Source of the DNA: an uncultured Gammaproteobacteria bacterium
Lineage (GTDB): Bacteria > Patescibacteriota > Patescibacteriia > Patescibacteriales > GWC2-42-12
Length of the DNA stretch: 64,000 bases
NCBI GenBank assembly: GCA_964560005.1
Contig: CAZLKB010000004.1
Location: forward strand, 76,112-140,111
Direction of reading: 5' to 3'
Made by a program: the position numbers and the translations under genes. The notes under the pieces are model-generated. The model searched no databases. It had not been told where the DNA came from and saw nothing but the letters and a program-made list of their open reading frames with translations. Below, piece after piece: positions 4,052 to 62,285 of this stretch; within the stretch, counting starts at the first letter, position 1, and each line of letters begins with the position of its first letter.

Positions 4052-4075
4052 AGCCTAAAATTTTAAGTGGAAAAA

Positions 4076-5226: not shown

Positions 5227-5312
5227 TTATTCCTCTTTTTTCGCCCTCCGGCCGCCGTCTTTCTTTTTTTCCGTCAGACCCCTCATAACTTCCACCAATT
5301 TTTTTATGCCTT
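5227..5312 (-). repeat. 86-bp direct repeat, copy B (the genuine 3' end of the 104-aa gene)
   Basis: Matches 3966-4051 with a single mismatch. The two copies are 1261 bp apart. Confidence 0.9.
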
Positions 5313-5541
5313 CGCCAATCAAGAACAAATAAGACGCGCTATGCTCGATTTTTTCTTTTAGAGAATCAATAATTGTGTCGACCTTATGCAGCCGGTCGCG
5401 CATCTCCTTGATAATCTGGGAAGATTGCTTTAATATCATGGCCAGATAAAAAATCGCCCAGCAGGTAAAAATAGCTAGACCTAAAATTGAAATAGAGATG
5501 ACGATGTATAATAGGTCTTGGCTGTTGTTGAGTAGAGACAT
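5227..5541 (-). CDS. Small membrane protein (one N-terminal TM helix, charged C-terminal helix)
   Basis: 104 aa. 'LLYIVISISILGLAIFTCWAIFYLAMIL' followed by an amphipathic tail. Confidence 0.55.
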   Translation of the reverse strand: MSLLNNSQDLLYIVISISILGLAIFTCWAIFYLAMILKQSSQIIKEMRDRLHKVDTIIDSLKEKIEHSASYLFLIGEGIKKLVEVMRGLTEKKKDGGRRAKKEE

Positions 5542-18844: not shown

Positions 18845-19744
18845 ATGTTTAAATTAATTTCCAAAATTGTTGTTATAATTTTTCTTTCAATCTTATTTTT
18901 TCAAATCAATACAACATATGCCGCAAATGAATGCGTCTGGGCGTATAAAATTAACGGCCTATGCAGTGCACAGGGTCTAGGTTATGATGTAGCTGATAAC
19001 AGTTGCTCTAATGTCAGTAAACCCCTGGGTTGCGCGGGTGGTGCCAATTTTTCTTGTAAATGTTGCTGTACAACAAAGTCCGAGTCATCATCCGCTTCAA
19101 AAACTGGAATTAACTTTAAGCCTCAAGTTGAGGGGCTGACTTATAATTTTAACAATTCCGATACTACTACCGGCAATATCGCCAACTATATTAAAGCCAT
19201 TTATCAATACGGTATCGGCATTGTCGGCATCTTGGCCGCCGTGGTCTTAATGTACGGCGGCGTGCTCTGGATCGTGGCCGGCGGCAACGCCTCGCAAGTC
19301 GGCGAAGCTAAAGCCTGGATCGGCGCCGCCCTGACCGGCCTGATTTTAGCCCTGACTTCTTATATGATTTTAAATACAATTAACCCCGCGCTGGTGAATT
19401 TGCAGACTACCAGTGTGCCGGGGGTGACAGAAATGGCAACTGGTAGTTGCACTACTCCTGCAGATTTGGATACAGGAAACGTTACCTGTACAGATAACGT
19501 TTTAAAAGAAAATTGTAAATATAACTTCGCAAAAGGTGAAACGTGTCCTCAGGCGTGCTGTCTTTGGGGAAAATTTGGAACAAGAGATCTTTGGAATGGT
19601 TGCTTTGCTTCAAAAAATTTAATTGAAAGTGATTGCAAAAGAACTGGTGGGTCTGATGCATTATATATACCTAACGCTGCAAATATCGCGTGTCAAATTG
19701 ATAAATTGAATAGCAGTATATATACTGGATGTACAAAAAAATAA
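18845..19744 (+). CDS. VirB2/TrbC-like pilin paralog with Cys-rich N- and C-terminal ectodomains
   Basis: 299 aa with the same hairpin core as 18068-18661. The N-terminal part is 'ECVWAYKINGLCSAQ..CSNVSKPLGCAGGANFSCKCCC' and the C-terminal domain carries about 11 Cys. Confidence 0.55.
   Translation: MFKLISKIVVIIFLSILFFQINTTYAANECVWAYKINGLCSAQGLGYDVADNSCSNVSKPLGCAGGANFSCKCCCTTKSESSSASKTGINFKPQVEGLTYNFNNSDTTTGNIANYIKAIYQYGIGIVGILAAVVLMYGGVLWIVAGGNASQVGEAKAWIGAALTGLILALTSYMILNTINPALVNLQTTSVPGVTEMATGSCTTPADLDTGNVTCTDNVLKENCKYNFAKGETCPQACCLWGKFGTRDLWNGCFASKNLIESDCKRTGGSDALYIPNAANIACQIDKLNSSIYTGCTKK
19187..19410 (+). repeat. 224-bp segment 100% identical to 18281-18504
   Basis: See the paired feature at 18281-18504. 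Confidence 0.95.
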
Positions 19745-29611: not shown

Positions 29612-29706
29612 AGGGATACGAATTACAAATTTAATACAAATTTACAAATATTTTATAAACTCTATTTAAAGTATTTGTAAATTCGTAACAGATTTGTAAT
29701 TCATAT
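29612..29706. repeat. AT-rich palindromic module, family D (TACAAAT / ATTTGTA words)
   Basis: ACGAATTACAAATTTAATACAAATTTACAAATA is mirrored by TATTTGTAAATTCGTAACAGATTTGTAATTC. It lies directly upstream of the rpoB start. Confidence 0.8.
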
Positions 29707-31665: not shown

Positions 31666-31787
31666 GACTAATAATGTAAAATTTAAAAATCAAAATGGAA
31701 AATGACAATTAAAAATGAAAAATGTCTGAATTTATTATTTTAAATTTTACATTGTCATTTTACACTTTGAGATTTACATTTTTAATT
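31666..31787. repeat. Family A palindromic module
   Basis: ATGTAAAATTTAAAAATCAAAATGGAAAATGACAAT... is mirrored by ...ACATTGTCATTTTACACTTTGAGATTTACATTTTT. Confidence 0.85.
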
Positions 31788-33523: not shown

Positions 33524-33531
33524 AATATTTA

Positions 33532-33610
33532 CCCCACAAATCTACAAATCGACAACAAATAATACAAATACTATTCGTGATATTCGTAGCGAATTTGTAG
33601 CTTTGTGGGG
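33532..33610. repeat. Family D palindromic module
   Basis: CCCCACAAATCTACAAATCG ... CGAATTTGTAGCTTTGTGGGG. Confidence 0.8.
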
Positions 33611-33644
33611 TGATTACGATTAACCGGCTAAAACTATTATTTTA

Positions 33645-36600
33645 CTATTTACTTTGAATCGCTTGTATTTGCATTTTTAAATCATCAATTTGCTTTTGCT
33701 GTTCCAGGTTTTGCCTCTCTAAAGCCTGAATCCTTTCGTCGTGGACTAGGAACTTCTTAAACAAATCTTCAACCTTGGCCGCTAGATTGCTTAAAGCGGC
33801 GGCCAATTCTTTAATCGCTTCAACTATAAAAGCTTCAATACCCTGCTTTTCCAGCGATTTATAGCCGTTTTGATCGGTTTTAACCCATTCGGGAAAAACT
33901 TTTTCCACATCTTGGGCGATAAAGCCGCGCTGCAAGCCCTCTCCCCGGCTTTTATCTTTCCAATAGAAACTGACGCCCTGTAAGCTGGTTATTTTATCAA
34001 GAGAGCCCTCCAGCGGCTGAATCATTTCCTTCAGTCTGGCGTCAGAGATCACTGCCCAGACTCCTGTGGTATTGGCGGCACTGCCGTCTTTAGTAAAAAT
34101 TATCTGGTCATCAAGATTCCAAAATCTTAATTCGTCGGTCTCATCGTCTTGATAAATCCCCCAATAGGGGCTATCGGCGCTCTGGATTTCAATTTCTGCG
34201 TTGCCGCTGGCGGTTTTTAGATGCACTAATTTATTCGGCGCCGCCGTGCCTATGCCTAAAAAGCCGGAAGCGTTGAAAACCGCCTGAACCGCGTTAGAGC
34301 TGTTTTTTATCTCCATTATATTGGCCGTTTGGCCTCCTGAATAACCATAGAGCGCTAGGGCCGGGACATTTACGCTCAAATTATTGATGCCGGCGATAAC
34401 CATAAGCGAAGCGGCGTCGCAGACGCTTTCCTGGCATGCGATCGCTGAAGGATTAGCTGCCGTATGCCTATTGCCGAGCACCTCGATACCATAATAATTG
34501 AACATTCTGATGCCATAATTAGAAATTGTCTGTATTCCAGACTGCTCATTCACCCAAAAAGACGGCATCACCACCTTGCCGGCATTCGTAAAATCGGTCT
34601 GATAAAACTTCCTGCCGGAATCGCCGAAGAATAAATAGCTATTTCCGGCGGCGTTAGTTCCCGCGATATGCAAGTCGTTATAGTTTGTATTAAGCCCTTT
34701 AACGGCATATATCTGCGCCTGCTGTGTCGGAAAATCCGGGCTGGAAAGAAGAAGCTTGGCATTTACCTTGTCGTATTGAAAAGTAGTGCCGATACCCACA
34801 TCGCCGCCGGCATAATTTATTCCTCCGGCAACATCAGCCCACTGGCTGGTGGCGGCCGGCCAGCTGGTTCTGGTCACTCCTCCCAAACGGATGCCGCCCG
34901 AACTCATGTCTAGAGCGGCTTGCGGATTAGTCGTGCCTATGCCCACATTGCCGCTTGCATTGATAAAAACCTTAGGCGTATCGGCTGATTCAACGGTATT
35001 ATCAGGAAAAAAAGCAATACCGCCGTTATTAGCGCCAATCCGAAGCCAATTACCGTTAACTTTGGCCACCAACGATAGATCATTGTTCCTGCCTAAACCC
35101 ATAAACCCTTTAAGCGCTGTCCCGTCATTCGTATAGAAATTAACATCATTATTATTCCAAAGACCGATACTGCCGTTATTTACGCTTAATTTCTGGGCTG
35201 GCGCCGCTGTGCCGATGCCCACATTGCCGTTTTTAAGCACGGTCAGGGCGTTAGACGGACTGCCGGCGGCCGTCCCGTTGCCTACGATAAACAACGGATC
35301 GGTCGCTACCCAGCTATCCACGGTCCCGCTAATAACATTATATTGCCCAAATACCGCCGAAGCGTAGGCTTGAGCCGTGGTATGAGCGCCGAAGGCGGCT
35401 GAATAGTTGCCGCTAGCGCCGTTATCAAATCCGCCGCCGACAAAAGAATATTGTCCTTGCGCAATATTTAACTTTCCTCCACTAACTGCGGCCGAAAGGC
35501 CTATCGCTTGGTTTCCCTGCCCGCCACTGATTGTAGAATAATCGCCTTGAGCGATACTCTGCCGAGTAGGTATAACATCTGTTGCCGGTCCGCCTCCGGA
35601 TACTACGGAATAACCGCCTAAAGCGTGGTTGTCTCTCCCGCCGCCGACAAAAGAATGAGCGCCGTCGCTACTGTTATTGCTGCCGCCGCCAACGAAGCTG
35701 ATAGACCCGCCGGCAAAATTATTTTGCCCCGCTGCAAAACTGTTATCTCCGCTGGCATTGTTGTTTTGCCCGAAAGCAACGGAATAGTTACCGATATTAT
35801 CATTATTCCATTGTGCTCCGTTAACATAGCCTGCTCTAAACGCGGCTTTCCTGGGATACCAAAAAAGCCTTGTGCCCGCGCTTAGATTAACTTCTGTCCA
35901 GCCTTGGCCGAACTCGCCTACGGCCAAAATATCCCCTCCTGAAACGATTTCAATCGCCGTCCTTGGTTCCGTAGTACCAATGCCAATACTGCCGTTGCGG
36001 GCTATGGCAAACTTGTATTCAAAAGCAGGATCGATTTGAGAATCGTGCAAACCGAAATTTTGTGAATTTTGAAAATACCAATTGCCTGTTGATTTACTAA
36101 AACCTATGCGACCGGTATAACCGTCATTCAAAACTTTATTTGTATTTAATAAACTATCCCAATAGGAATTAGCGTATAAAATAAAATTACCACTCTTAGC
36201 GTCAGCGAGAGTCATTCTACCGTCAACGTGAAGAGTATTCTTTGGAGTTGATGTGCCGATGCCGACCTTTCCCGAATTATAATAAATATCACTTTCGGAA
36301 GTTGTCCATTGGCTATTACCAAACAAAATACCATTTTTACGTAAATTACCAGTAAAATTAATATCACCGGCAACGGCTAATTTATAGCCCGGACTCGTCG
36401 TCCCGATGCCGACATTACCGGTTGTATTTTGTAAAACTATTTTTCCGGAGTTATCATCAATAAACCAAAGGCTGCCAGCAACGTTAGCCACCTCATAATC
36501 CTCAGATCCAGCCGATAAATTAACACCAGCACTTCCTCCGCTTGACGAAATATTTAAATATCTGGTTATAGAAGAGGGTGAAAAAGGATTATTCGTTCCA

Positions 36601-37889
36601 ATCCCGACATTGCCGGTATTGTAATATATGCTACTACCAAAATTATGCCATTGGCTGCCACCTCCATTAGGAAGTGATGCGACATTTAATTCTTGTTTAC
36701 CAGAAGTCATAACTCGGTTAATACTATTACCGGGCACGGCCACGAATAAACCATTGCCGTAAGTTACGGATTGCCAGCTATTAGCTTCGGCGGCTGTTCT
36801 AGCGGTCCAGTTGGCGCCGTCAGGAGAAGTCATAACACGATTAGCGCCATCAGACGCCACGGCCACGAATAAACCATTGCCGTAAGTTACGGATTTCCAT
36901 TGATTAGCTTGAGCGGCTGTTCTGGCGGTCCAGCTGATGCCGTTAGGAGAAGTCATGACTCGATTAGTACCATTAGTAGACACAGCTACAAACAAGCCAT
37001 TACCATAGGTCACGGATTTCCATTGATTAGCCTCTATGGCCGTTCTGGGAGTCCAAATTGCGCCGTCGGGAGAAGTCATGACTAGATTTAAACCATTATC
37101 AGTACCCACAGCCACGAATATGCCATTACCGTAGGTCACAGAAGTCCAATTAGTGGCTATAGAAGCTGTTACAGGGGTCCAAATAGCGCCATCAGGAGAA
37201 GTCATAACGCGACGGCCGCCATCACCAGCCACGGCTACATATATACCATTACCGTAGGTTACGGAATGCCAGGCATTAGCTTCAGGGATTATTGCACCAG
37301 TCCAGGTGATGCCATCAGGAGAAGTCATGACGCGGTAAGAACCTCCTGCTGACACGGCATCAGCCACGGCCACGAATAGCCCGTTGCCGTAGGCCACGGA
37401 AACCCAACTACTATTATCGGCGGCTGTTCTGGCGGTCCAGTTGATGCCGTCGGAAGAAGTCATAACTTGACCAAAAGCAGCATAATCAGACACGGCCACG
37501 AATATACCATTGCCATAAGCCACAGAAGTCCAAACATTAGTTACGGGAGTTGATCTGGCGGTCCAAGATGTTCCCTTAGAAATAATATCTCCGACGACTT
37601 CCAGCGCCGCGCCCGGTGTGATTGTCCCGATGCCGACCTTGCCATAAACCGCCAAACCGGTAGCCAGAATATCATCCATATTAACCTTTAAAGATCCATA
37701 TTTAATCTGCGGCAATGAACCCATATTAATCGGCGCATCGCAACCCGGATTACCGGTCGCACAAGTCGGCGGACTCGCTAAAGGCGCTGTCCAGGCGGCT
37801 AAAAGTGATTGAAAAGAGATTAATAAACCTAAAGTTAAAAAAACTGTTATTAATAAATAGCTAAAAATTTGTAAATTTCTCTTGGTCAT
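33645..37889 (-). CDS. Giant surface fibre/adhesin: 7-blade propeller, tail-fibre-like 'GNVGIGT' repeats, YadA-head-like beta-roll, C-terminal S74 intramolecular-chaperone domain
   Basis: 1414 aa with an N-terminal anchor. Seven ~41-45-aa repeats of the form 'W.SV.YGNG.FVAV....RVMTSPDG..WT.RT' (nt ~36690-37577). 'SVAFGQNNNASGDNSFAAGQNNFAGGSISFVGGGSNN'. C-terminal 'ISDARLKEMIQPL...GVSFYWKD...GFIAQDVEKVFPEWV' (nt 33648-34046) followed by a coiled coil. Confidence 0.85.
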   Translation of the reverse strand: MTKRNLQIFSYLLITVFLTLGLLISFQSLLAAWTAPLASPPTCATGNPGCDAPINMGSLPQIKYGSLKVNMDDILATGLAVYGKVGIGTITPGAALEVVGDIISKGTSWTARSTPVTNVWTSVAYGNGIFVAVSDYAAFGQVMTSSDGINWTARTAADNSSWVSVAYGNGLFVAVADAVSAGGSYRVMTSPDGITWTGAIIPEANAWHSVTYGNGIYVAVAGDGGRRVMTSPDGAIWTPVTASIATNWTSVTYGNGIFVAVGTDNGLNLVMTSPDGAIWTPRTAIEANQWKSVTYGNGLFVAVSTNGTNRVMTSPNGISWTARTAAQANQWKSVTYGNGLFVAVASDGANRVMTSPDGANWTARTAAEANSWQSVTYGNGLFVAVPGNSINRVMTSGKQELNVASLPNGGGSQWHNFGSSIYYNTGNVGIGTNNPFSPSSITRYLNISSSGGSAGVNLSAGSEDYEVANVAGSLWFIDDNSGKIVLQNTTGNVGIGTTSPGYKLAVAGDINFTGNLRKNGILFGNSQWTTSESDIYYNSGKVGIGTSTPKNTLHVDGRMTLADAKSGNFILYANSYWDSLLNTNKVLNDGYTGRIGFSKSTGNWYFQNSQNFGLHDSQIDPAFEYKFAIARNGSIGIGTTEPRTAIEIVSGGDILAVGEFGQGWTEVNLSAGTRLFWYPRKAAFRAGYVNGAQWNNDNIGNYSVAFGQNNNASGDNSFAAGQNNFAGGSISFVGGGSNNSSDGAHSFVGGGRDNHALGGYSVVSGGGPATDVIPTRQSIAQGDYSTISGGQGNQAIGLSAAVSGGKLNIAQGQYSFVGGGFDNGASGNYSAAFGAHTTAQAYASAVFGQYNVISGTVDSWVATDPLFIVGNGTAAGSPSNALTVLKNGNVGIGTAAPAQKLSVNNGSIGLWNNNDVNFYTNDGTALKGFMGLGRNNDLSLVAKVNGNWLRIGANNGGIAFFPDNTVESADTPKVFINASGNVGIGTTNPQAALDMSSGGIRLGGVTRTSWPAATSQWADVAGGINYAGGDVGIGTTFQYDKVNAKLLLSSPDFPTQQAQIYAVKGLNTNYNDLHIAGTNAAGNSYLFFGDSGRKFYQTDFTNAGKVVMPSFWVNEQSGIQTISNYGIRMFNYYGIEVLGNRHTAANPSAIACQESVCDAASLMVIAGINNLSVNVPALALYGYSGGQTANIMEIKNSSNAVQAVFNASGFLGIGTAAPNKLVHLKTASGNAEIEIQSADSPYWGIYQDDETDELRFWNLDDQIIFTKDGSAANTTGVWAVISDARLKEMIQPLEGSLDKITSLQGVSFYWKDKSRGEGLQRGFIAQDVEKVFPEWVKTDQNGYKSLEKQGIEAFIVEAIKELAAALSNLAAKVEDLFKKFLVHDERIQALERQNLEQQKQIDDLKMQIQAIQSK

Positions 37890-38343: not shown

Positions 38344-38421
38344 ATAATACAGTTATAAAGTTGAAAGTTTATAAAGTTATTTGTTTATTGACTTTATAAC
38401 TTTACAAACTTTATAAACTTT
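38344..38421. repeat. AT-rich palindromic module, family C (ATAAAGTT / AACTTTAT words)
   Basis: GTTATAAAGTTGAAAGTTTATAAAGT is mirrored by ACTTTATAACTTTACAAACTTTATAAAC. Confidence 0.85.
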
Positions 38422-39402
38422 CTACTTAATCATATTATTCACCATTCTAACCAGCTTGCTCGCCCCCCTGCTTTTATTCAATTCAAGAAACAGCGATGTC
38501 CAGGCGGTGATCTGAAAAACCGACAAAGCCGCGCCGCCGGCGATGACGATGAATAAAAAGCCGGCAAAAGCCAAAACCGCGATCAGCCAAGAGCCGGCCG
38601 CGGAAAATGAGTAATAGAAGATTAAGCCCAAAAACATAAACGGCACGGCCAGAGTTAAGATGGTTAAAACGATGGCCAGACCGGCTAAGAGATTAATGAA
38701 AAAAAGAATTATGGACATTTCAACGCTAATAAGCCAATTGCTTATAAATAACCGCCAGCTCTGCTTTAAAGCCGAACCGACCTTATGCTTATTAACCACT
38801 ACATAGGCCACGGCATACTTAGAGATAAAAGACAAAATTACCGCTAACGGCACGGCGATAATTAAAGCCGCAACATAAAAAATCTTAACTCCCGAACTGG
38901 CCGGCAAAAAAACCGCCGGCAAGCTGACGGCTAATAATATCAAATAGACTACGGCTTTAATTAAAATATTTATCAATAAAACCGGCCAAAAATTCAACAT
39001 GCCGGCCTCCCAGCCGTTTCTTAAAGAGTTTTTTTTCTGGCTTAAGAGTGCGGCCGAATTGTTGACTATAGCCGCTTGCGAAACCACCACCAGCCAAACC
39101 AAGAATATTAAAAACGCCAAAGCAATTAAAGCGATGATAAAGACAATAATTAGATTTAGAGTATTATCTCTCAGTAAATTTCCTATATTGGCGAAAGTCT
39201 TCGCGCTTAGCACCCCGGTTGAAAAAATGCTTTGCCAAGAAGAAAATAAGGCCTGGCCGGGATTATTGCCGGTATTATTCAATAAAATATCCAATTCCCC
39301 GCTATTGCCTAAGAGGGCGGCGAAAATTCCCAGCCACCAAAGATATTTGTTGCGCCAAGTTAATCTCCAGGCTTGTTTTAGAATATTCCGATAAAATGGC
39401 AT
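38422..39402 (-). CDS. Polytopic membrane protein of unknown function
   Basis: 326 aa with about 6-7 hydrophobic helices. N-terminal 'ILKQAWRLTWRNKYLWWLGIF'. Confidence 0.6.
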   Translation of the reverse strand: MPFYRNILKQAWRLTWRNKYLWWLGIFAALLGNSGELDILLNNTGNNPGQALFSSWQSIFSTGVLSAKTFANIGNLLRDNTLNLIIVFIIALIALAFLIFLVWLVVVSQAAIVNNSAALLSQKKNSLRNGWEAGMLNFWPVLLINILIKAVVYLILLAVSLPAVFLPASSGVKIFYVAALIIAVPLAVILSFISKYAVAYVVVNKHKVGSALKQSWRLFISNWLISVEMSIILFFINLLAGLAIVLTILTLAVPFMFLGLIFYYSFSAAGSWLIAVLAFAGFLFIVIAGGAALSVFQITAWTSLFLELNKSRGASKLVRMVNNMIK

Positions 39403-39524: not shown

Positions 39525-41402
39525 TTATTTTGTTGTAATTTCTTCGCCGCCTTCTTTTGGGCCGACAATTTTCTCAAATTCCTCTTTTTCCAAAGTTTCT
39601 TTTTCCATAAGAGCCGCTACGGTCTTTTCCAAAAAATCATGCTTAGCCTTAATAATGCCTTTGGCTTTTAAAACCGCCAGATCGATAAAATTAGAAATTT
39701 CTTTGTCAATCTGCTCGGCAACCTTTTCGCTATAATCCCTCTGCTCGTGGATTTCTCTGCCCAAGAAAATCATTTCTTCTTTATCCCCGTAAGTCCTGGG
39801 GCCTAAAGCGTCGCTCATGCCGTAATCGGTAATTAATTTTCTGGCCAAGCCGGTCGCGCGCCTTAAGTCGGAAGTGGCGCCGGTGGTTACTTCGCCGAAA
39901 ACTTCTTTTTCCGTAACATAACCGGCCAAGAGAACCGCGATTTCCTCCACATATTCAGTTCGGGAATACATGTGCTTGTCTTCCAGCGGCAGTTTTAAAG
40001 TATAGCCGCCGGCCTGGCCGCGGGCAATAATGGAAATTTTTTGCACCGGGTCGGTCAGCGGAGAAAAATGAGCCACGATGGCGTGGCCGGCTTCGTGATA
40101 GGCGGTGATCTTTTTTTCTTTGTCGGATAAAATTCTTGATTTTCTCTCCGGCCCCATCATAACTTTTTCAATGGATTTGAAAATATCTTCCAGGCTGATT
40201 ATTTTTTTATTCTTCATGGCGGCTACGATCGCGGCTTCATTTAAAAGATTGGCTAAATCCGCGCCGGTAAATCCCGGCGTTCTTTCGGCTACTCTCTTTA
40301 AGCTGACTTCTTTGCTTAATGGCTTCTTTTTGACATGCACCTTTAAAATTGCTTCGCGATCGGCTAAATCAGGCTCATCTAAAATAACACGGCGGTCAAA
40401 ACGCCCGGGCCTAAGTAGCGCCGGATCTAAAACGTCCGGCCGATTGGTGGCGGCGATGACTATCACATTAGTGTTGGGATCAAAGCCGTCCATCTCCACT
40501 AATATTTGGTTTAGAGTCTGTTCGCGCTCGTCGTGCGAGCCGCCGAGTCCGGAGCCGCGCTTGCGTCCGACCGCGTCAATTTCGTCTATAAAAATTATGC
40601 AAGGAGCGCTCTTTTTGGCTTTTCTAAATAAATCCCGGACGCGGGAGGCGCCCACGCCGACGAACATCTCAACGAATTCCGAGCCGGACAAGCTGAAAAA
40701 AGGCACATTGGCTTCGCCGGCTACCGCCCGGGCTAAGAGCGTTTTGCCCGTTCCCGGACTGCCTAAGAGCAAGACTCCGCGCGGCGTACGCGCGCCCAGC
40801 TCGGAAAATTTCTGCGGGCTTTTTAAAAATTCAACCACCTCTTTTAATTCTTCCTTAGCTTCTTTAACTCCGGCCACTTCTTTAAAGGTCACCTTGTCCT
40901 TAAATTCCCGGCCGATTTCTTTGGCCTGGGACTGGCCGAACATCATGGCTTTTGAATTCGCGCCCTGGACCGAACGGAGCATGAAATAAATAAAAACGCC
41001 AATCAATAAAAAGGGAATTAAAAACGGCAAAATCGCGCCCAGCCAATAATTCAGGCCCTCATCGTCTTTAACTTCAATCTTTATGGCCGCCACTTTAGCC
41101 TGATCAAGATTAAAATTTTTAACGATTTGCGAAAAGGTCTCGCCGGCTTCTTTTTTTACCACCTCGCTCTTCCCCGCCTGTTCGGCCTGCCCGCCGGTAG
41201 GCAGATCCGATTTTAAAGTCACCTGCATTTCACTGCCGGCGATTACTATTTTTTCAACTTCCTGGTTATTAATTTGCGCCACTAAAGTATCAATGCCCAC
41301 TACCTCGGTCTTGCCGCCACCGCCGCTGATAATGCTAAAAACCGCGGCGATCAGCAAAAAAGTCGTAAAAAATATCAAAAAATTTTTAATTAAATTTTTC
41401 AT
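39525..41402 (-). CDS. ftsH: ATP-dependent zinc metalloprotease FtsH
   Basis: Walker A 'GSPGTGKT', SRH '[20 protein letters not shown]', and the zinc site 'HEAGH'. Confidence 0.95.
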
Positions 41403-41420
41403 TGGTTTAAATTATGGTTC

Positions 41421-41470
41421 ACCCGTTAAATCCCGATCAAGCTTGGGACGCAGAGCGTATTTAACGGGGT
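41421..41470 (-). promoter_or_regulatory. ~50-nt three-way hairpin element in the ftsH 5' leader (copy 1)
   Basis: Sense reading ACCCCGTTAAATACGCTCTGCGTCCCAAGCTTGATCGGGATTTAACGGGT. The outer stem encloses ACGC-N3-GCGT and a CCCAAG.../...GGG hairpin. It starts about 7 nt after the predicted TSS. Confidence 0.55.
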
Positions 41471-41483
41471 AAATTATGTTAAA

Positions 41484-41512
41484 ATTATATAATATTAATC
41501 AATTATTGGCAA
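41484..41512 (-). promoter_or_regulatory. Near-consensus sigma70-type promoter, TTGCCA-N17-TATAAT
   Basis: Minus strand TTGCCAATAATTGATTAATATTATATAAT. The -35 is the complement of 41507-41512 and the -10 is the complement of 41484-41489. Confidence 0.65.
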
Positions 41513-41602: not shown

Positions 41603-43198
41603 CTAGTACGGCGATCGGAGCCGGTAGAAACGAACGGGATAATTCGTCCACTGGCTATCGCTGAAATAGGCCGAGCCTCCGGCCAGGGTATTGGTTTTTA
41701 CCGCCAGCCAAACCGGATTGGCCGCGTTCGTCGCGGCCTCCACCACCACGACCTGGCCGCTGGTTCCGGCGATAAAAAACCCGAACTGATTCGTTCGCAC
41801 GCCGACGCCGGCGATGCTGGGCCGCTCCGGCGCCGGCGGCCACCATAACGCGGTCGGAAAACCGGCGAAGGTTGACTTCCAACCCGTGGTTCCGGCTCGA
41901 TAATAAACGGTCGCACCGCTAACGAAAGCAAAGGTGGACGAATCTACGCTCGGGGCATTGCCTAGGAAGTAAATTCTTTTCAGTTTGGAGCAGAAAAAAA
42001 ACGCTTCGTGGCCGATGTGGGTAACGCTCTTCGGAATAATTATACTAACTAAGCTCTCGCACATATAGAATGCGCCATCACCGATAAAAGCAATAGGCGC
42101 GAGAATGACGAGATTGGTCAGTTTATCGCAATATGAAAAGGCGTCACCAAAGCTAACGACACTGGCTGGAATAGTAATACCCTGAAGGCCGCTTAGGGCA
42201 AAGGCCTTATCACCAATTCTGACGACACCCTCAGGGATGGTGAGGTTTGTTAAACTTGGACATTTATAGAATGCCAGATACCCAATATGTAAGAGGTTCG
42301 CCGGCATAACGACAGTGGCCAATTTTAAACAAGAATAGAACGCATAATCACCAATATTAGTGACGCTATGGCCGATGATGACACTCTTTAGGCTGGGGCA
42401 AGTGCTAAACATACGGTCCCCGATGCTCACAACTCCTTTGCCGATGATGACGTTGGTCAAATTAGGACAAGTGCTGAATGCCTGTGCCCCGATGCTTAAA
42501 ACGCTGTCCGGGATAGTAACACCGGTCAGGCTGGGGCAGGAGTTAAACGCGTAATTGCCGATGCTTATAACGCTCTCCGGAATCGTGTAGTTGCCTTCGG
42601 CCTTGCCCCAGGGGTAATGAATGAGCGCGGTCCGATTTTTATCAAACAACACGCCGTCCAGACTGGAGTAGAAGGCATTAGAAGCGGCCACATTTATCGC
42701 GCTTAGACTGCCACAGCCGTAAAACGCCCAGTCGCCGATCCGGTCAACGCTCTCCGGGATAGTGATGCTCTCCAGGCTGGTACAGCTGTCAAACGCCCCG
42801 TCGCCGACACGGCCGACGCCGTTGTTGATGGTGACGCTGGTCAGGCCGGTGCAGAGGTGGAAAGCGCCGTTGCCGATCCGGGTAACGCTACCCGGAATGG
42901 TGACGCTGGTCAGGCCGGAACAGGAATCGAACGTCGAGTAGCCGATGTTGGTGACGCTTAAGGGAATGGTGACGCTGGTCAGACTATAACACCCCTCAAA
43001 CGCCTGATCTCCGATACTGACGACCGGCAGGCCGCTCATCGCGTTAGGAATGGCCACGTCGCCGCCGGAACCGATGTACTTAACGATGGTGATTGCGCCG
43101 TTATCGATGGTGTAATTGAACGGGAACTGCTCATCAGCGCAAGCGCTGAAGACGAATAGAGCCAGGCTTAAATAGATCTCTTTGCTAACACTTTTCAT
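41603..43198 (-). CDS. BspA-type leucine-rich-repeat (LRR_5-like) secreted protein, compositionally GC-rich
   Basis: About 12 repeats of the form 'IPxSVTxIGxxAFxxCxxLTSVTI'. The signal peptide starts at M32, 'MKSVSKEIYLSLALFVFSACA'. The C-terminus is '...VRFYRLRSPY'. GC content is visibly higher than its neighbours; one 60-nt line I counted (41761-41820) is 36/60 G+C. Confidence 0.8.
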   Translation of the reverse strand: MKSVSKEIYLSLALFVFSACADEQFPFNYTIDNGAITIVKYIGSGGDVAIPNAMSGLPVVSIGDQAFEGCYSLTSVTIPLSVTNIGYSTFDSCSGLTSVTIPGSVTRIGNGAFHLCTGLTSVTINNGVGRVGDGAFDSCTSLESITIPESVDRIGDWAFYGCGSLSAINVAASNAFYSSLDGVLFDKNRTALIHYPWGKAEGNYTIPESVISIGNYAFNSCPSLTGVTIPDSVLSIGAQAFSTCPNLTNVIIGKGVVSIGDRMFSTCPSLKSVIIGHSVTNIGDYAFYSCLKLATVVMPANLLHIGYLAFYKCPSLTNLTIPEGVVRIGDKAFALSGLQGITIPASVVSFGDAFSYCDKLTNLVILAPIAFIGDGAFYMCESLVSIIIPKSVTHIGHEAFFFCSKLKRIYFLGNAPSVDSSTFAFVSGATVYYRAGTTGWKSTFAGFPTALWWPPAPERPSIAGVGVRTNQFGFFIAGTSGQVVVVEAATNAANPVWLAVKTNTLAGGSAYFSDSQWTNYPVRFYRLRSPY

Positions 43199-43334
43199 AC
43201 TTTTATTTCTTTCGTGCTTTTCTTTCGGAAAATTTACCCGGCAACGCCCGGGTTTTGCGTCCGCCTTTGGCGGAGTTATTTTAAAGGACAAAAGTAATTA
43301 TTTTTTACCATTCATTTTAATTTTTGTCAAATCC

Positions 43335-43417: not shown

Positions 43418-44797
43418 TTAGGCGGATTTCTTCTTTTCAGTCTTGGCCTTTTTTTCCGCGGCCGGTTCGGTTTTTTCCTTATTAACCTTTTTAGCCTTGG
43501 GCTTCTTTTCGACCGAGGTTTTTTCCGGCCCGGGCTTTTTAGCCTTTTTATCTTTTTCGGCCTGGACTGAACCTGTTGAAGCGCCATCTACTTTTGCCTC
43601 GACTTTTTCCTTAGCCATGGTTTTTTCTGCTTTTGCTTGGCCGGTTGCCTGATCTTTCGTGGGCAGGGAAACCGCCAAACCTAAACGATGGTCTCTGGGT
43701 TCAATAGAAACCACGCTGAATTCCTTTTTATCGCCGGCCTTATAAACCTCATTAATTTTCTGTCCGGGCTTAAGCCCTAATTGGCTGATATGCGATAAGC
43801 CGTGGATATCTTTGTCCAGCTCGACGAACAAACCGAAAGGATTAACCTTAAGTATCGTGCCGGCGACGGTCTGCCCGACCTTATATTTTTTCTCCACATT
43901 ATGCCAAGGATCCTGCAGTAATTTTTTGGCGGATAAAAATATCTTTGATCCTTCAATGGAAATAATTTCCGCCTTAATCTTATCGCCGACCTTAAATAGG
44001 TCCGAAGGATCGTCTATTCTTTGCCAAGCCAATTCACTGATATGAATTAAGCCTTCCAAATTTTCGCCAAAACTTAAGAAAACGCCGAAATCGGTTAAAG
44101 CGGCTACGGTGCCTTCAACCAGGCTGCCGACTTTATATTTAGAGATGATATCTTTTTGCTTTTCTTGCCAGGCTTCTTTTTCGCTGACCACCAGTTTTTC
44201 GTCTTTTTCATCTAAAGTCATAACTTTGACTTCAAAATCGGTGCCGACAAAAGATTTTAGCTTGTCCAGAATCTTGCCTTTATCGCCACCGTTGACGCGG
44301 GGGTAATTTTCCGGCGCCAATTGCGAAACCGGTAAAAATCCCTGAATTTGAGCATAGCTGACTAAGAGCCCGCCCTTGTTGGCGTCGTTCACTCTGACTT
44401 TTAAAATTCCCCGGTTATCAAAAGCGTCGATCAAAGTGCTCCAGGCCTTTTGCTGGCCGGCGCTTCTGAATGATAATTCAAGTTCGCCGTTTTCGTTTTC
44501 TTCCTCAATGATGGTAGCCTCAACTTCGTCGCCCGGCTTTAAGTGGGCGTATTCATCAGCCTCGAAATAAAGCTCTCGGCCGCGGACCACTCCGGTAGTT
44601 ATGCCGTCAATATCCAGCTTTACCTCGGCTTTTGAGGCGGATAAGACCGTGCCTTTGACAATGTCGCCGGCTACGGGAATTTTTACATTCTCTTTATCTA
44701 ATAACTTTTGAAACTGCTCGCCGCTGGCTTCGTCGAATTTTATGTCGCCCGGCGCAACCGGTTTATACTTGCTATTGTTTTTTGTTTCTTCTGCCAT
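43418..44797 (-). CDS. rpsA: 30S ribosomal protein S1 (four S1 domains) with a lysine-rich C-terminal tail
   Basis: Repeated S1 motifs 'G.IV.G.V......G..V......G..H.S'. The tail is 'KKAKKPGPEKTSVEKKPKAKKVNKEKTEPAAEKKAKTEKKK'. Confidence 0.85.
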   Translation of the reverse strand: MAEETKNNSKYKPVAPGDIKFDEASGEQFQKLLDKENVKIPVAGDIVKGTVLSASKAEVKLDIDGITTGVVRGRELYFEADEYAHLKPGDEVEATIIEEENENGELELSFRSAGQQKAWSTLIDAFDNRGILKVRVNDANKGGLLVSYAQIQGFLPVSQLAPENYPRVNGGDKGKILDKLKSFVGTDFEVKVMTLDEKDEKLVVSEKEAWQEKQKDIISKYKVGSLVEGTVAALTDFGVFLSFGENLEGLIHISELAWQRIDDPSDLFKVGDKIKAEIISIEGSKIFLSAKKLLQDPWHNVEKKYKVGQTVAGTILKVNPFGLFVELDKDIHGLSHISQLGLKPGQKINEVYKAGDKKEFSVVSIEPRDHRLGLAVSLPTKDQATGQAKAEKTMAKEKVEAKVDGASTGSVQAEKDKKAKKPGPEKTSVEKKPKAKKVNKEKTEPAAEKKAKTEKKKSA

Positions 44798-44815
44798 AGA
44801 ATTAATTGTTAATTA

Positions 44816-45541
44816 TTATTTGTCGTCTTCAAGCACCTCATCCTTCGGTAAAATTCCTTGTTTAGTATAAGGATGTATTTTTCTAATCTCTTGCAACGCT
44901 ATCTTTACAGGCAACTCGCTTGGTTGCGCGGGATAGAACACGCTCGTTGCCGCAGTAAATTTGTCCTGATGTTTTATTAAATACCGCTTAATCCGGGGCC
45001 AATGCTCAAAATCAGAAACTATCACAACTTTATTATCTTTAGAAATTAAACTTTTCGGGAAATCTTCAAACTGGTGATCGGTATGTTCAATATCCCGGGA
45101 TTCGGTTATCTGGATTTTGCTTCCGGGAAATCCATAGTTTTTCATAAGTTCCCCGTTTTTTATGAATTCCTTAAAATAGTCGTTTTGGGCGGCTGATCCG
45201 TTCCAGTAAACCACTGGGCCTTGTTTTTCTATGTCTTCAGGAGTCACCTCGGCTATTTTCTTTCCGCAACGGCGGGCGGTAACGGAGCGGGCCACCTGCA
45301 AGGCAGTTTCAAATCTCCTCTTGGTCATGTTATAATGGACGGCTTTATGACTTTCTTTCGGGCGGGGCGGGGCATTTTCTTCCAATGTCGTCTCCGGTCC
45401 GCTCAATGCCCAAATAACACTCCAATCTTGTTCAGGAATAGGAAGTTTTTGCTTAGCTAGCTCACGGTATTCTTCCACTACTTTGTGACGAGAATCAGTA
45501 TATTCTTGATTAAAATAACCGCTCTCTTGTTCTGGCTTCAT
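44816..45541 (-). CDS. Hypothetical protein, weakly DUF218/YdcF-like
   Basis: 241 aa, ending 18 nt upstream of rpsA, so probably co-transcribed. 'VVIVSDFEHWPRIKRYL' faintly resembles the DUF218 C-terminal motif. Confidence 0.5.
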   Translation of the reverse strand: MKPEQESGYFNQEYTDSRHKVVEEYRELAKQKLPIPEQDWSVIWALSGPETTLEENAPPRPKESHKAVHYNMTKRRFETALQVARSVTARRCGKKIAEVTPEDIEKQGPVVYWNGSAAQNDYFKEFIKNGELMKNYGFPGSKIQITESRDIEHTDHQFEDFPKSLISKDNKVVIVSDFEHWPRIKRYLIKHQDKFTAATSVFYPAQPSELPVKIALQEIRKIHPYTKQGILPKDEVLEDDK

Positions 45542-45637
45542 AATAAAAAAACGCGTCTAACCTCTTGCCGCCGACAGGCGAAAAAAGAAGTCCTTTAGCC
45601 ACCTTATGCTAAAGGTTGAATTATAGGTGTTTTTTTT

Positions 45638-45688
45638 ACCCCGTTAAATCCCAATCAAGATTGGGACGCAAAGCGTATTTAACGGGGT
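45638..45688 (-). promoter_or_regulatory. ~50-nt three-way hairpin element in the leader of the 241-aa-gene/rpsA operon (copy 2)
   Basis: Sense reading ACCCCGTTAAATACGCTTTGCGTCCCAATCTTGATTGGGATTTAACGGGGT. It starts about 8 nt after the predicted TSS. A CCTTTAGC-N8-GCTAAAGG hairpin plus a T-run lies further downstream in the leader. Confidence 0.55.
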
Positions 45689-45702
45689 GAATTTGTTTTA
45701 TT

Positions 45703-45730
45703 ATTATACATTATACCTAAAAAATTGCAA
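45703..45730 (-). promoter_or_regulatory. Sigma70-type promoter, TTGCAA-N16-TATAAT
   Basis: Minus strand TTGCAATTTTTTAGGTATAATGTATAAT. Confidence 0.6.
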
Positions 45731-45757
45731 GTTATCGCGGTTTCCGGCCCCTCTGAA

Positions 45758-45795
45758 ATAAAAACGGCTGGCAATAATGCCAAACCGTTTTTATT
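45758..45795 (-). terminator. Intrinsic terminator after the thioredoxin-like lipoprotein gene
   Basis: Interrupted stem AAACGG..TTGGCA-TTAT-TGCCAG..CCGTTT followed by TTTTAT on the minus strand. Confidence 0.6.
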
Positions 45796-45821
45796 TATAT
45801 TATTGGTTCTAATTTTTATTT

Positions 45822-51354: not shown

Positions 51355-51454
51355 GTCATTCCCGCGTAGGCGGGAATCCATAATTGTGACCCGAGTTATA
51401 TTTCTGGATTCTCTGGTTTCCTGCCTACCGGTAGGCAGGAAACCAGAGAATGAC
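51355..51454. repeat. GTCATTCC...GAATGAC GC-rich composite hairpin element
   Basis: GTCATTCCCGC-GTAG-GCGGGAAT and CTCTGGTTTCCTGCCTACCGGTAGGCAGGAAACCAGAG hairpins. Confidence 0.8.
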
Positions 51455-53993: not shown

Positions 53994-54117
53994 GACAATA
54001 ATGTAAAGTTTAAATCTTAAAGTGTAAAATGACAGTTTAAAATTAAAAATGTCTAATTATTATAATTTTACATTTTGCATTGTCATTTTACATTTTGAGA
54101 TTTACATTTTAAATTTT
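53994..54117. repeat. Family A palindromic module
   Basis: AATGTAAAGTTTAAATCTTAAAGTGTAAAATGACAGT is mirrored by GCATTGTCATTTTACATTTTGAGATTTACATTTTAAAT. Confidence 0.85.
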
Positions 54118-54894
54118 TTATTTCCCGTTCACCGCCTTTAATATCTGCGTGTGCACCTTGCCGTTAGAGGCCGCGATATTAGGTTCGCCTAAACGCCAAT
54201 CACGGCCCTTAAAATCCGTCACCTTGCCGCCGGCTTCCCGGACTAATAATACCCCGGCCGCCACATCCCAGTCGTTGGTGCCGGGCGCGACGAAAGATTC
54301 CACCCGGCCGGTAGCTACATAGGCGAGTTCAATCGCGGCCGAGCCCATTTGCCGGCAATCCAATTCGTTCAATTTTTGCTTGCGCCAATAGGCCAGGGCT
54401 TTTTTAATATAAACATCTTTGGTGCCATGGCAAAAAGTATTTAAAACCTTGCCTTGGCTGATACTGGAAACATGAATTTTCCTGCCGTTCAATTCCGCGC
54501 CCTGCCCGGTTTCGGCTGAGTAAGTTTCCTCCAGCATCGGCGCGTAAATCAGGCCGAAAATTAATTCGCCTTGCTTGGCTAAGGCCATAGAAATTGACCA
54601 GAGAGGGTTATGCATGGAGAAATTAGTAGTGCCGTCAATCGGGTCAATATACCAGGTATATTCGGCAGTATTTTTCTCCCTTGGCCTCTCTTCGGAAACA
54701 ATGCCATGGCCGGGAAAATATTTTTTGATCTCACTAATAATTATTTCCTGGGAAAGTAAATCAGCCTTGGTTAAAATTTCATGATGCGATTTAAGCATGA
54801 CATCAAGACGATTAAATCTGGCGTATTCTTTTTTTAGCATCCGCCCCGACAGTTCAACCGCGCTTAAAGCGATTTTTTTTATTTGATCAGACAT
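54118..54894 (-). CDS. Inositol monophosphatase family protein
   Basis: 'WYIDPIDGTTNF' and 'WDVAAG'. The likely start is M12, 'MSDQIKK'; the upstream part of the ORF is repeat sequence. Confidence 0.85.
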   Translation of the reverse strand: MSDQIKKIALSAVELSGRMLKKEYARFNRLDVMLKSHHEILTKADLLSQEIIISEIKKYFPGHGIVSEERPREKNTAEYTWYIDPIDGTTNFSMHNPLWSISMALAKQGELIFGLIYAPMLEETYSAETGQGAELNGRKIHVSSISQGKVLNTFCHGTKDVYIKKALAYWRKQKLNELDCRQMGSAAIELAYVATGRVESFVAPGTNDWDVAAGVLLVREAGGKVTDFKGRDWRLGEPNIAASNGKVHTQILKAVNGK

Positions 54895-58169: not shown

Positions 58170-58261
58170 AATTAAGTTATAAAGATAAAAAGTTCATAAA
58201 GTTATAAAGTTGCTTTTTAAACTTTCAACTTTATAACTTTACAAACTTTATAACTGATAAT
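58170..58261. repeat. Family C palindromic module
   Basis: GTTATAAAGATAAAAAGTTCATAAAGTTATAAAGTT is mirrored by AACTTTATAACTTTACAAACTTTATAAC. It shares ACTTTATAACTTTACAAACTTTATAA with 38344-38421. Confidence 0.85.
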
Positions 58262-59965
58262 TTATTCCGAAACTCTAAAGACCTCTTCTACGCTAGTGAT
58301 ACCGTCCAAAGCTTTTAACAGCCCGTCCTGCACCATGGTAATCATGCCGTTTTTCTTGGCATTATTGCGCAAATCATATTCGCTGGCCGTACCGGTTAAT
58401 ATTATTTTTTCCATTTCTTCATTCATAACCATCACTTCGTAAATGCCGATTCTGCCTTTATAGCCGATGCCCTGGCAGGACTCGCAGCCATCGCCTTGAT
58501 AGAATTTTAAATTATTTAAGTCAAACTTTTTCTTTTCCTCCTCCCCAAGCTCGCCTAAAATCCCTTTAACCCGCTCTAAAATGCCGCTATCCAGCTTTAC
58601 TTCTTTTTTGCACTTTTCACAATTTTTTCTAACCAGTCTCTGCCCGATCATGACATTTAAAGCCGGCGCCAAGAGATAAGGCTTGGCTCCCATGGATAAA
58701 AATCTGGGCACCGTTCCGGCGGCATCATTGGTATGAATTGTGGATAGAACCAAGTGCCCTGTTAAGGCCGCTTGAATGGCGATTTCCGCTGTTTCTAAAT
58801 CGCGAATTTCGCCTACCATGATTATATCCGGATCTTGCCGGACAATCGAGCGCAAGCCTTGGGCAAAAGTATAATTTTTACTGGCCTGCGATTGATTAAC
58901 GCCGCTCAGTTGATATTCAATCGGGTCTTCAATGGTGATAATTTTTGTTGTCGGAATATTCAGCTTTTTTAAAACCGCGTAAAGAGTGGTGGTTTTACCG
59001 GAACCGGTCGGCCCGGTAGTGATAATCATGCCGTTGGGGCGCTCAACCTCCCTCTTCAGCTGGTCAAAGGCTTGCCCGCGAATGCCTAGATAACCGAATT
59101 CCAATCCCACCGCGCTTGATCTTAATAATCTCATCACCACGCTCTCGCCGAAATTAGTCGGTAAAAAAGACGCCCTGATATCAATCCTGTCTGTTTTCAT
59201 AAAGATTGACAGGCGGCCGTCTTGCGGCTTGTCGGTAATGTTGATTTTCACCCCGGCCAGATATTTCATGCGTGAAATTATTTTTCCCCAGGCCGATTTA
59301 TCAATCGTAGCCGCGTCGTGCAAAACGCCGTCAATTCTGAACCTTACCTTTATAATCCCTTCCTCGCCCTCTATATGGATATCGGAAGAATTTGATTTTA
59401 TGGCCGCGGCCATAATCATTGTCACGATTTCCGTAGTTTGCGCCCCGCTTATTCCCGTTTGTAAATCTCGGAAGCTGGAAAATTTTTCACCATACTTATT
59501 CAGATCTTCTTCGGTAATTTTGACGCCGCGGACGATTTCTCTGACTTTAGGTATGGTTTTAAACATGTCCAGGCCGTAATTAAAGCTGTTTTCGGTGACT
59601 AAATAGACTTTTGTTTCGGCAAAATATTTTTCCGCCAGCTGGCGAGCCTTATTCTGCACTTCTGGATTACCGGGGTTTAGACTGGCCAAACGGATATTCT
59701 GCCCGTTATAAAAAAAACACAAAGTGTTTAGCTCCTTGGTTTCGTTTTCATCAATTAAAACCAAAGCTTCCGGACTGATGGGAAAGCCGACTAAATCAAC
59801 ATAAGGCAAGCCTAGACTTTCGGCCTTTTGCTTGGTAATCCGTTCCAGTTCTTTAATCCTTAGTTGTTTTTGCTTAACCGCGAATTTCGCCGTGGCGCTT
59901 TCGTCGTCGCCCGCTTGACCGGCCGCATCGCTAAACAAATCGGAGATTGATTGATTAGTTGGCAT
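58262..59965 (-). CDS. pilB: GspE/PilB-family type II/IV secretion (type IV pilus assembly) ATPase
   Basis: Walker A 'GPTGSGKTTTLY', the Asp box, Walker B 'IMVGEIRD', the His box 'GHLVLSTIHTN', and the tetracysteine motif 'CEKCK...CESCQG'. Confidence 0.9.
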   Translation of the reverse strand: MPTNQSISDLFSDAAGQAGDDESATAKFAVKQKQLRIKELERITKQKAESLGLPYVDLVGFPISPEALVLIDENETKELNTLCFFYNGQNIRLASLNPGNPEVQNKARQLAEKYFAETKVYLVTENSFNYGLDMFKTIPKVREIVRGVKITEEDLNKYGEKFSSFRDLQTGISGAQTTEIVTMIMAAAIKSNSSDIHIEGEEGIIKVRFRIDGVLHDAATIDKSAWGKIISRMKYLAGVKINITDKPQDGRLSIFMKTDRIDIRASFLPTNFGESVVMRLLRSSAVGLEFGYLGIRGQAFDQLKREVERPNGMIITTGPTGSGKTTTLYAVLKKLNIPTTKIITIEDPIEYQLSGVNQSQASKNYTFAQGLRSIVRQDPDIIMVGEIRDLETAEIAIQAALTGHLVLSTIHTNDAAGTVPRFLSMGAKPYLLAPALNVMIGQRLVRKNCEKCKKEVKLDSGILERVKGILGELGEEEKKKFDLNNLKFYQGDGCESCQGIGYKGRIGIYEVMVMNEEMEKIILTGTASEYDLRNNAKKNGMITMVQDGLLKALDGITSVEEVFRVSE

Positions 59966-62171: not shown

Positions 62172-62285
62172 AATAAATTTTGAAGAACGAATTTTGAATT
62201 TTGAATCAATTTTGAATGAAATAATTATTAAACATTCAAAATTAAAAATTCAATCAAAATTCTAAATTCAAAATTAAAAATTTTC
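62172..62285. repeat. AT-rich palindromic module (GAATTTTGA / TCAAAATTC words)
   Basis: GAATTTTGAATTTTGAATCAATTTTGAATG is mirrored by CATTCAAAATTAAAAATTCAATCAAAATTCTAAATTCAAAATT. Confidence 0.85.

Follow-up and report, generated by a model that had tools for sequence, protein, structure and literature searches.

The window analyzed here, a 64,000-nucleotide stretch of contig CAZLKB010000004.1 from an uncultured member of the Patescibacteriota, contains two copies of a short palindromic element, both on the minus strand and each located between a strong promoter and the gene downstream of it. Copy 1 (41418-41473 including the stem-extending flanks TTT and GAA, core 41421-41470) precedes ftsH (39525-41402, minus strand, 625 aa), with 18 nt between the end of its 3' arm and the ftsH ATG. 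Copy 2 (45636-45690, core 45638-45688) precedes an operon (43418-45541, minus strand) that consists of a gene for a 241-aa protein without a Pfam match (44816-45541), followed by the gene for ribosomal protein S1 (43418-44797). The ftsH promoter, TTGCCA-N17-TATAAT at 41484-41512, and the promoter of the 241-aa/S1 operon, TTGCAA-N16-TATAAT at 45703-45730, are located on the same strand, and each comes after the terminator of the gene before it. The A of ACCCC is 13 nt from the -10 box in copy 1 and 14 nt in copy 2. The initial annotation of the window had described two elements of about 50 nt, located 13-14 nt behind near-consensus promoters, and both parts of this description are confirmed. 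A pattern of the arms alone, allowing up to three mismatches, identifies only these two sites in the window and gives no matches in 100 shuffles, while the promoters outrank all other promoter-like sites of the region, and that of ftsH is kept in relatives.

Both copies are composed of two inverted arms that enclose two hairpins. Read along the minus strand, copy 1 consists of a 5' arm (41459-41470), the hairpin ACGC-TCT-GCGT (41448-41458), the hairpin CCCAAG-CTTG-ATCGGG (41432-41447) and a 3' arm (41421-41431), and its sequence from 41470 to 41421 is ACCCCGTTAAAT-ACGCTCTGCGT-CCCAAGCTTGATCGGG-ATTTAACGGGT. The corresponding parts of copy 2 are located at 45677-45688, 45666-45676 (ACGC-TTT-GCGT), 45650-45665 (CCCAAT-CTTG-ATTGGG) and 45638-45649, and its sequence from 45688 to 45638 is ACCCCGTTAAAT-ACGCTTTGCGT-CCCAATCTTGATTGGG-ATTTAACGGGGT. 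The two are about 92% identical and are regarded as sister copies, and the interior measures 27 nt (11 + 16 nt) in both. Copy 2 is intact, and both of its strands fold into a perfect three-way junction, whether as RNA (-25.5 kcal/mol, z = -5.7 and -6.2) or as DNA (z = -7.9 and -7.6). An independent Logan assembly matches its region base for base over 520 compared bases. Copy 1 shows degradation. Its 3' arm lacks one G, two of the six pairs in the second hairpin are broken on the gene-sense strand (A.C and G.A), and the minimum-energy fold of the sense RNA is something other than a three-way junction (z = -2.3). The three-way hairpin that was initially assigned to each copy is thus perfect in copy 2 but degraded in copy 1, and the two broken pairs contradict the statement that the differences between the copies all keep pairing possible. 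This decay of copy 1 speaks against selection on its fold. Neither copy is followed by a run of T residues (a U-tract in the RNA) on the sense strand, and the element is not called as a terminator.

With transcription start sites (TSSs) predicted about 7 nt past the -10 boxes, both mRNAs would start 4-8 nt ahead of a highly stable stem, and this co-transcribed hairpin probably forms the beginning of the ftsH mRNA and of the 241-aa/S1 mRNA. The location between a conserved promoter and a gene supports the earlier proposal that the element forms the extreme 5' end of both mRNAs. The surroundings of the ftsH start codon are AU-rich and unpaired in the predicted fold. A 5'-terminal hairpin can shield an mRNA from 5'-end-dependent decay, as in leaders of the ompA type, and by analogy a stabilizing side effect on the two mRNAs is plausible. 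However, any such protective effect cannot be essential, since close relatives lack the element.

The relatives of ftsH were identified by tracing FtsH homologs with 87-91% identity to the contigs that encode them. Four distinct relatives (L124-126, L127/128, L129 and L130) keep the promoter TTGCAA-N17-atattaTATAAT nearly base for base, with TTGC.A and TATTATATAAT as invariant columns in the alignment, and their leaders continue directly to the ftsH start codon without the element. One of them, L124, additionally retains the first bases of the leader (TTGCAA-N17-TATAAT-tttaacataatt). A fifth relative, L123, contains a TTGCAA promoter-like site upstream of ftsH and also lacks the element. For the 241-aa gene, a single ortholog with a comparable upstream region is available (L119, 61% identity). 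It contains the promoter TTGATT-N17-TATAAT and is 55 nt shorter exactly at the position of the element in the window, where the correspondence of the promoters is a manual reading, the gap having been put in the wrong place by MAFFT. The downstream leader aacacctataatt is retained in L119 and is followed by two hairpins with compensatory changes. Because the relatives keep the promoters and flanks but lack the element, both copies appear to be lineage-specific insertions into existing 5' leaders. The element is not a conserved cis-regulatory leader of ftsH or rpsA, as the orthologous position is empty in all five ftsH relatives and in L119, and the initial argument from a conserved position to a functional leader is not supported. 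Among the three roles originally offered, a 5' stabilizer, an operator and a promoter-plus-hairpin mobile unit, the last comes closest, but the mobile unit would be the hairpin alone, with the promoters in place before it.

The two hairpins retained in L119 belong to an older structured leader, separate from the element, that is located between copy 2 and the 241-aa open reading frame (ORF) at 45548-45637 on the minus strand. The first hairpin (45615-45592) is terminator-like. This leader of the 241-aa/S1 operon may be an attenuator or an autoregulatory leader, and an Rfam scan of 45500-45800 at E<=10 gave only chance-level matches.

The two copies in the window are members of a family. A scan of one genome per species with the pattern CCCGTTAAAT-N15-40-ATTTAACGGG identified at least 118 loci, where the rough chance expectation is about 14 loci if a uniform base composition is assumed. 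About a dozen of the listed matches are unrelated hairpins without the ACCCC/GGGGT extension, found in isolates (Staphylococcus, Microbulbifer, Williamsia, Methanosarcina, Mucilaginibacter and Neisseriaceae). The other loci have in common the inverted outer-stem arms RTTYACCCCGTTAAAT and ATTTAACGGGGTRAAY, 15-16 nt long, and the other listed matches also conserve flanks outside the query, R-T-T-Y-A before CCCCG and T-R-A-A-Y after CGGGG. The metagenome-assembled genomes (MAGs) that contain the element are in part labeled as Patescibacteria (Parcu-, Moran-, Saccharibacteria, Gracili-, Doudna-, Berkel-, Levyi-, Falkow-, Taylor- and Portnoybacteria) and in part as Omnitrophota, WOR-3, Stahlbacteria, Cloacimonadota, Desulfobacterales, Bacteroidota and Calditrichaceae. 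At the Rfam 15 gathering thresholds, there is no match in the window and none on the element in 20 loci, and at E values up to 10 the matches on the element are at chance level. A viral contig collection contained no matches to the element, and literature searches by arm sequence and by keywords revealed no published description of it, the papers matching the arm sequence being unrelated.

The arms are conserved, and the interior is replaced from copy to copy. In the class found in the candidate phyla radiation (CPR, Patescibacteria) and the Omnitrophota, the interior almost always consists of two perfect hairpins with 3-nt loops, arranged in a modular architecture with one hairpin of 13 nt (CCGSC-GAA-GSCGG) and another of 9, 15 or 21 nt. 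The interiors in Bacteroidota, WOR-3, Stahlbacteria and Cloacimonadota are unstructured and range from 16 to more than 120 nt. The length of the element is 46-90 nt. A covariance analysis, as suggested in the initial annotation, revealed double changes at eight of the 11 interior pairs in nine interiors of 28 nt, with 98-100% of the cells paired, where the nine had been preselected for folding into two hairpins. In the unfiltered list, about 13 of the 17 matches of length 48 contain two hairpins by our own reading; this and the counts given below refer to the matches listed. The arms covary as well (CCCTG/CAGGG, TTAGAT/ATCTAA and TTAAGT/ACTTAA), but the Y/R at arm position +-2 shows no covariation, which suggests that the sequence of each arm is read as well. 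The closest relatives of the copies in the window are an in-frame copy with an 11 + 17 nt interior (L084) and a copy at the mltG locus with an 11 + 18 nt interior. The latter supplies the last codons and the stop codon of the gene upstream of mltG and is kept across several species, and its orthologous copies differ by two double compensatory changes. As judged from these substitutions, the palindrome appears to be maintained at the DNA level.

About one-fourth of the listed matches are located inside long ORFs, as are 21 of the 68 two-hairpin copies (31%). The host ORFs are genuine conserved genes according to Pfam, encoding PolA (DNA polymerase I), EF-G, UvrB, YchF, the ATP synthase gamma subunit (atpG), a GT4 glycosyltransferase, an O-antigen ligase and a PurF-like protein. 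In two Moranbacteria, the element is inserted at two different positions in PolA, and an alignment of the two proteins shows that it constitutes extra sequence in variable loops. Nearly all copies inside genes are read in one frame, giving the peptide [IV][HY]PVKS-(GEAG)-(AKQ)-FNGV[KN], for which there is no Pfam or NCBIfam model. The single reading frame is explained by the canonical flanks, since the frame is open through both arms (xPVKS...FNGVx) only if the interior length is 1 mod 3. Such interiors are found in 19 of the 21 copies inside ORFs and in 46 of all 68 two-hairpin copies, where about 23 would be expected, and the second hairpin lengthens in steps of 6 nt. The 27-nt interior of the two copies in the window is not compatible with the frame, which fits their non-coding location. 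Copies inside ORFs are preferentially oriented with purine-rich loops (Glu or Lys codons), in 14 versus 3 cases, while the orientation between co-directional genes is 7 versus 7. Furthermore, the sense and antisense strands fold equally well, and a test of G.U versus A.C pairs revealed no asymmetry. Since the strands fold equally and the intergenic orientation is unbiased, the constraint is on the DNA palindrome and on what the host protein tolerates, rather than on an RNA fold of the sense strand. For example, one arm of the copy in L040 has a synonymous Pro change and the other a compensating Gly-to-Arg change, so that pairing is kept at the expense of the peptide.

Two further observations concern insertions into proteins. 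In L013, a different palindromic in-frame insert (CCTCGCGTCGACGAattgTCGTCTACGCGAG, at about 1900-1975, PolA codons 633-657) is found at the PolA loop where L077 carries the element, and because this loop holds a different insert, in-frame hairpin insertions in CPR genes may come in several families. In L082, a pilin carries a copy of the element, inserted at its KG|FTLIE prepilin motif.

The surroundings of the copies are likewise variable. The family as a whole has no constant upstream promoter, no peak in the distance to promoters and no fixed distance to the TSS. The initial annotation had named scattered copies without promoter association as the finding that would speak against a functional leader, and at the level of the family the motif search identified many such copies, including those in frame in PolA, EF-G, UvrB, YchF and atpG. 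Clustering of 813 neighboring ORFs gave only housekeeping genes as recurrent neighbors, with pilB/pilC in six loci. These pilB/pilC genes are located within 2.5 kb of the element (L002, L009, L020, L059, L078 and L086), and in L059 two copies of the element flank pilB, while the pilB gene of the window itself (58262-59965) has no element nearby. Copies of 59-60 nt with unstructured interiors (L014, L018, L057, L076, L085, L088 and L118), which belong to WOR-3, Stahlbacteria and Cloacimonadota, have 8-bp direct repeats on their flanks (ATCTGCGT, ACGCAGAT and ATCAGCGT), which suggests either a target duplication or an insertion into another repeat.

The scattered loci and the empty sites point to mobility, and we consider it very probable that both sites in the window are selfish palindromic insertions that are carried along as co-transcribed passengers, nonautonomous and of the same kind as the Rickettsia palindromic elements (RPEs), the REP sequences and the MITEs (miniature transposable elements with inverted repeats). 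An enzyme encoded elsewhere would recognize the arms and move the element without target duplication, as RAYT does for REPs, with either DNA strand, or an RNA copy, folding into the three-way junction. The two sister copies would then have landed in the initially transcribed regions of two strong promoters that already existed. Copies persist where they are harmless, in intergenic DNA, at gene ends and, with an interior of 1 mod 3, in surface loops of proteins. With no neighboring transposase and no fixed context, the element behaves like REPs and RPEs, whose mobilizing function, if any, resides elsewhere.

Several observations weigh against a selfish insertion. There is no excess of direct repeats at offsets 0-8 in the family as a whole, including the CPR class, and no transposase was found in the window, where the majority of the larger ORFs were annotated with Pfam, or up to 2.5 kb away from the listed copies. 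The density in two long contigs is about two exact-pattern copies per Mb, which is unusual for a selfish repeat, and no recent insertion polymorphism was seen at the strain level. All true members of the family come from MAGs, and some of the phylum labels may be binning errors. The conservation of the arms across phyla and the long retention at the mltG locus could also reflect a host function. Finally, five copies are located 11-16 nt behind strong -10 boxes, namely the two in the window and those in L136 (TTGACA-17-TAATAT, 14 nt to the element), L104:2097 (TTGACA-16-TATTAT, 11 nt, immediately before an L10 leader) and L074 (TTGACA-16-TATAAT, 16 nt). This corresponds to about five of the 47 two-hairpin copies outside ORFs, where a rough estimate for random placement in intergenic DNA gives about two. 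The trend is weak and could reflect insertion into melted promoter DNA, or a tolerance or usefulness of hairpins at 5' ends. In L136, a consensus promoter and a sister element copy are followed by a long hairpin of about 110 nt (4756-4880) with no ORF and no Rfam match, which may be an unannotated small RNA.

A further-reaching version of the insertion hypothesis is that the arms define an undescribed cross-phylum class of hairpin-mobilized DNA elements, in which the three-way junction is recognized by a single-strand- or structure-specific enzyme. Such an element would be compatible with translation, with one frame open in both orientations and interiors that lengthen in steps of 6 nt. It would prefer strong promoters, entering the melted DNA that is transcribed first and there becoming a 5'-terminal hairpin that the host can exploit. 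We offer this only as a tentative and rather improbable idea.

The alternative that survives best, although we regard it as unlikely, is that the hairpin is a 5' leader under selection, kept for protection from 5'-end-dependent RNases or as a processing site. It would then be an exapted element, as has been reported for Correia and ERIC sequences in untranslated regions (UTRs), and transcript hairpins of the Correia/ERIC type are processed by RNase III. Consistent with this alternative, the predicted TSS is located 4-8 nt upstream of a very stable stem while the AU-rich translation start is left unpaired, the copies in the window agree in orientation and in their distance of 13-14 nt to the -10 box, and those in L136, L104:2097, ahead of the L10 leader, and L074 share this layout behind consensus promoters. 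A stable hairpin within a few nucleotides of the mRNA 5' end is also what characterizes the ompA-type 5' stem-loop stabilizers. However, these are gene-specific conserved leaders, whereas the element is missing from the same leaders in the five ftsH relatives and in L119 and is found in many other contexts. In addition, the sense-strand pairing has been lost in copy 1, about one-third of the two-hairpin copies are located inside ORFs, and the family as a whole shows no folding advantage of the sense strand, no bias in co-directional orientation and no peak in promoter distance.

It is far less probable that the inverted arms are a DNA operator through which a conserved transcription factor controls ftsH, rpsA and further genes. 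There is overlap between the site and the initially transcribed region, the arms are conserved in sequence, and the lack of covariation of the Y/R at +-2 is expected if the arms are read as sequence. However, the spacing of the arms varies from 16 to more than 120 bp, copies are found in unrelated ORFs and at gene ends, the neighboring genes share no common regulon, and the orthologous promoters lack the element.

Equally improbable is a substrate for site-specific recombination, either a folded site similar to the attC sites of integrons, a dif-like site or a mini-inverton with a flipping interior. The sequences GTTAAAT and ATTTAAC fit the short boxes GTTRRRY and RYYYAAC of attC, in which the fold rather than the sequence is recognized and the terminal structure is variable and possibly branched, just as the structure of the element is conserved and its interior sequence is not. 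The same frame is also open in both orientations. However, relative to the loop, the boxes stand in the opposite order, RYYYAAC ... GTTRRRY in attC and GTTAAAT ... ATTTAAC in the element, and its stems are perfect, with no bulges, no extrahelical bases and no unpaired central spacer. The copies are isolated, with no cassette arrays and no integrase or recombinase as a recurrent neighbor in the clustering, and orthologous copies keep one orientation. The interior of 16-40 bp is also too short for the synapsis of an invertase, for which the Hin and Fim systems set the length limit.

That the sites are chance hairpins, terminators or assembly artifacts can be dismissed for practical purposes, for although about a dozen listed matches are unrelated hairpins, the window shuffles gave no matches, the flanks outside the query are conserved, no U-tract follows the stem, the independent assembly is identical, and in-frame copies come from many independent studies. 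A DNA-uptake sequence was also considered and ruled out, since single arms are almost absent, the copies are too sparse, and uptake sequences are not expected to be conserved across phyla.

Among known systems, the RPEs are by analogy probably the closest kind to the selfish insertions proposed here. They are outlined in a review as in-frame selfish palindromes of about 100-150 nt with no known transposase (Ogata et al. 2000, cited in PMC10969869). Like the RPEs, the element is a short palindromic repeat that is scattered in a small genome and inserted in frame into unrelated housekeeping genes, to which it adds a conserved peptide, as observed in PolA, EF-G, UvrB, YchF, atpG and others, and no transposase is known for either. 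Judged by the description of the RPEs, the element differs in being 46-90 nt rather than about 100-150 nt long and in being hosted by Patescibacteria and other labeled phyla rather than by the genus Rickettsia. Its interior is replaceable and contains two hairpins, and its copy number is low.

The REP/REPIN-RAYT systems and the MITEs that reside in UTRs may be viewed as mechanistic neighbors. REPs and REPINs are described as short hairpin repeats mobilized by RAYT transposases of the Y1 HUH type (PMC3337134, PMC3733652 and PMC6006769), and one of these papers presents the hypothesis that co-transcribed REPs stabilize mRNA (PMC3733652). As far as these descriptions go, REPs resemble the element in that they form hairpins that are preserved by compensatory changes, show no target duplication and have their mobilizing gene, if any, elsewhere. 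They differ in being extragenic and species-specific and in occurring in hundreds of copies, while 31% of the two-hairpin copies of the element are located in ORFs and the density is about two per Mb. The ends of the element, TTYA and TRAA, also lack the GTAG or CGTC terminal tag, and no RAYT gene was found, pilB/pilC being the only recurrent neighbors in the clustering. The Correia (CREE) sequences of Neisseria and the ERIC sequences of enterobacteria are bacterial MITEs that alter transcripts (review PMC10969869). Like MITEs, the element has terminal inverted repeats that are shared by dispersed copies, at least 118 loci in this case, is inserted near promoters and in UTRs, is probably co-transcribed as a hairpin and is occasionally found in frame. 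However, Correia and ERIC have target duplications, relatives among insertion sequences and a restriction to particular lineages, none of which is seen for the element except for the 8-bp repeats in the WOR-3/Stahlbacteria subclass. An insertion sequence that could be its parent was likewise not found in the window or up to 2.5 kb away from the listed copies. The PARCELs are similar in that they are coding DNA with dyad symmetry, have a patchy distribution across distant taxa and have presumably spread horizontally, but they consist of 25-residue units repeated in tandem within surface proteins of unknown function, rather than of single insertions in housekeeping genes and intergenic DNA. The element is set apart from all of these systems by having the same arms across labeled phyla, replaceable structured interiors, frame-preserving modules and a low copy number.

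If both copies are insertions, the shared ftsH/rpsA "leader" is not a signal for a regulon, which removes a tempting false lead. The family also shows that the tiny, gene-dense genomes of Patescibacteria and MAGs labeled as other uncultivated phyla carry a common palindromic element, which essential proteins (DNA polymerase I, EF-G, UvrB and ATP synthase gamma) can take up without being disrupted. In annotation, its sites may be miscalled as RNA motifs, operators or protein insertions, and in protein evolution it provides ready-made loop insertions. The shared arms could be used to trace horizontal transfer between co-resident phyla, and an enzyme that recognizes a DNA three-way junction may exist.

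The window contains additional repeats, two of which share sequences with the element. An AT-rich palindrome of 85 nt (33529-33613) has element-like termini, TTACCCC...GGGGTGA, and inner arms of the ACAAAT type, and it ends 5 nt before the ruvA ATG. Based on the shared 7-nt ends, it is possibly a member of a related element family. The inverted repeat GGGGAGGTTAAATT / AATTTAACCCCC at 38-100 contains the inner GTTAAAT/ATTTAAC as in the element, with the outer G/C run swapped. Large AT-rich inverted repeats are located in intergenic regions at 1270-1395, 29616-29706, 31673-31787, 38346-38439, 53997-54118, 58175-58255, 62175-62283 and elsewhere; they are built of short words such as AAAATGT/ACATTTT, TTGAAAATT and AACTTTATA and represent several dispersed repeat families. 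A perfect 44-nt palindrome with 22-nt arms and no spacer is found in an intergenic region at 51408-51451.

The gene order between S1 and ftsH also differs from that in the relatives (L123-L130), where S1 is located directly upstream of ftsH. In this genome only, a gene of the BspA-type LRR_5 family with internal 69-nt repeats (41603-43291) is located between them, and L124-126 instead contain a diversity-generating retroelement (bAvd and a reverse transcriptase) there. An ORF of 1414 aa at 33645-37889 contains at least seven tandem repeats of 123-126 nt. Two pairs of direct repeats are also present, one of 90 nt with 98% identity (3966-4055 and 5227-5316) and one of 266 nt with 95% identity (18261-18526 and 19167-19432), the latter overlapping by coordinates with two neighboring ORFs, one of which contains a domain similar to pilins of type IV secretion systems (T4SS).

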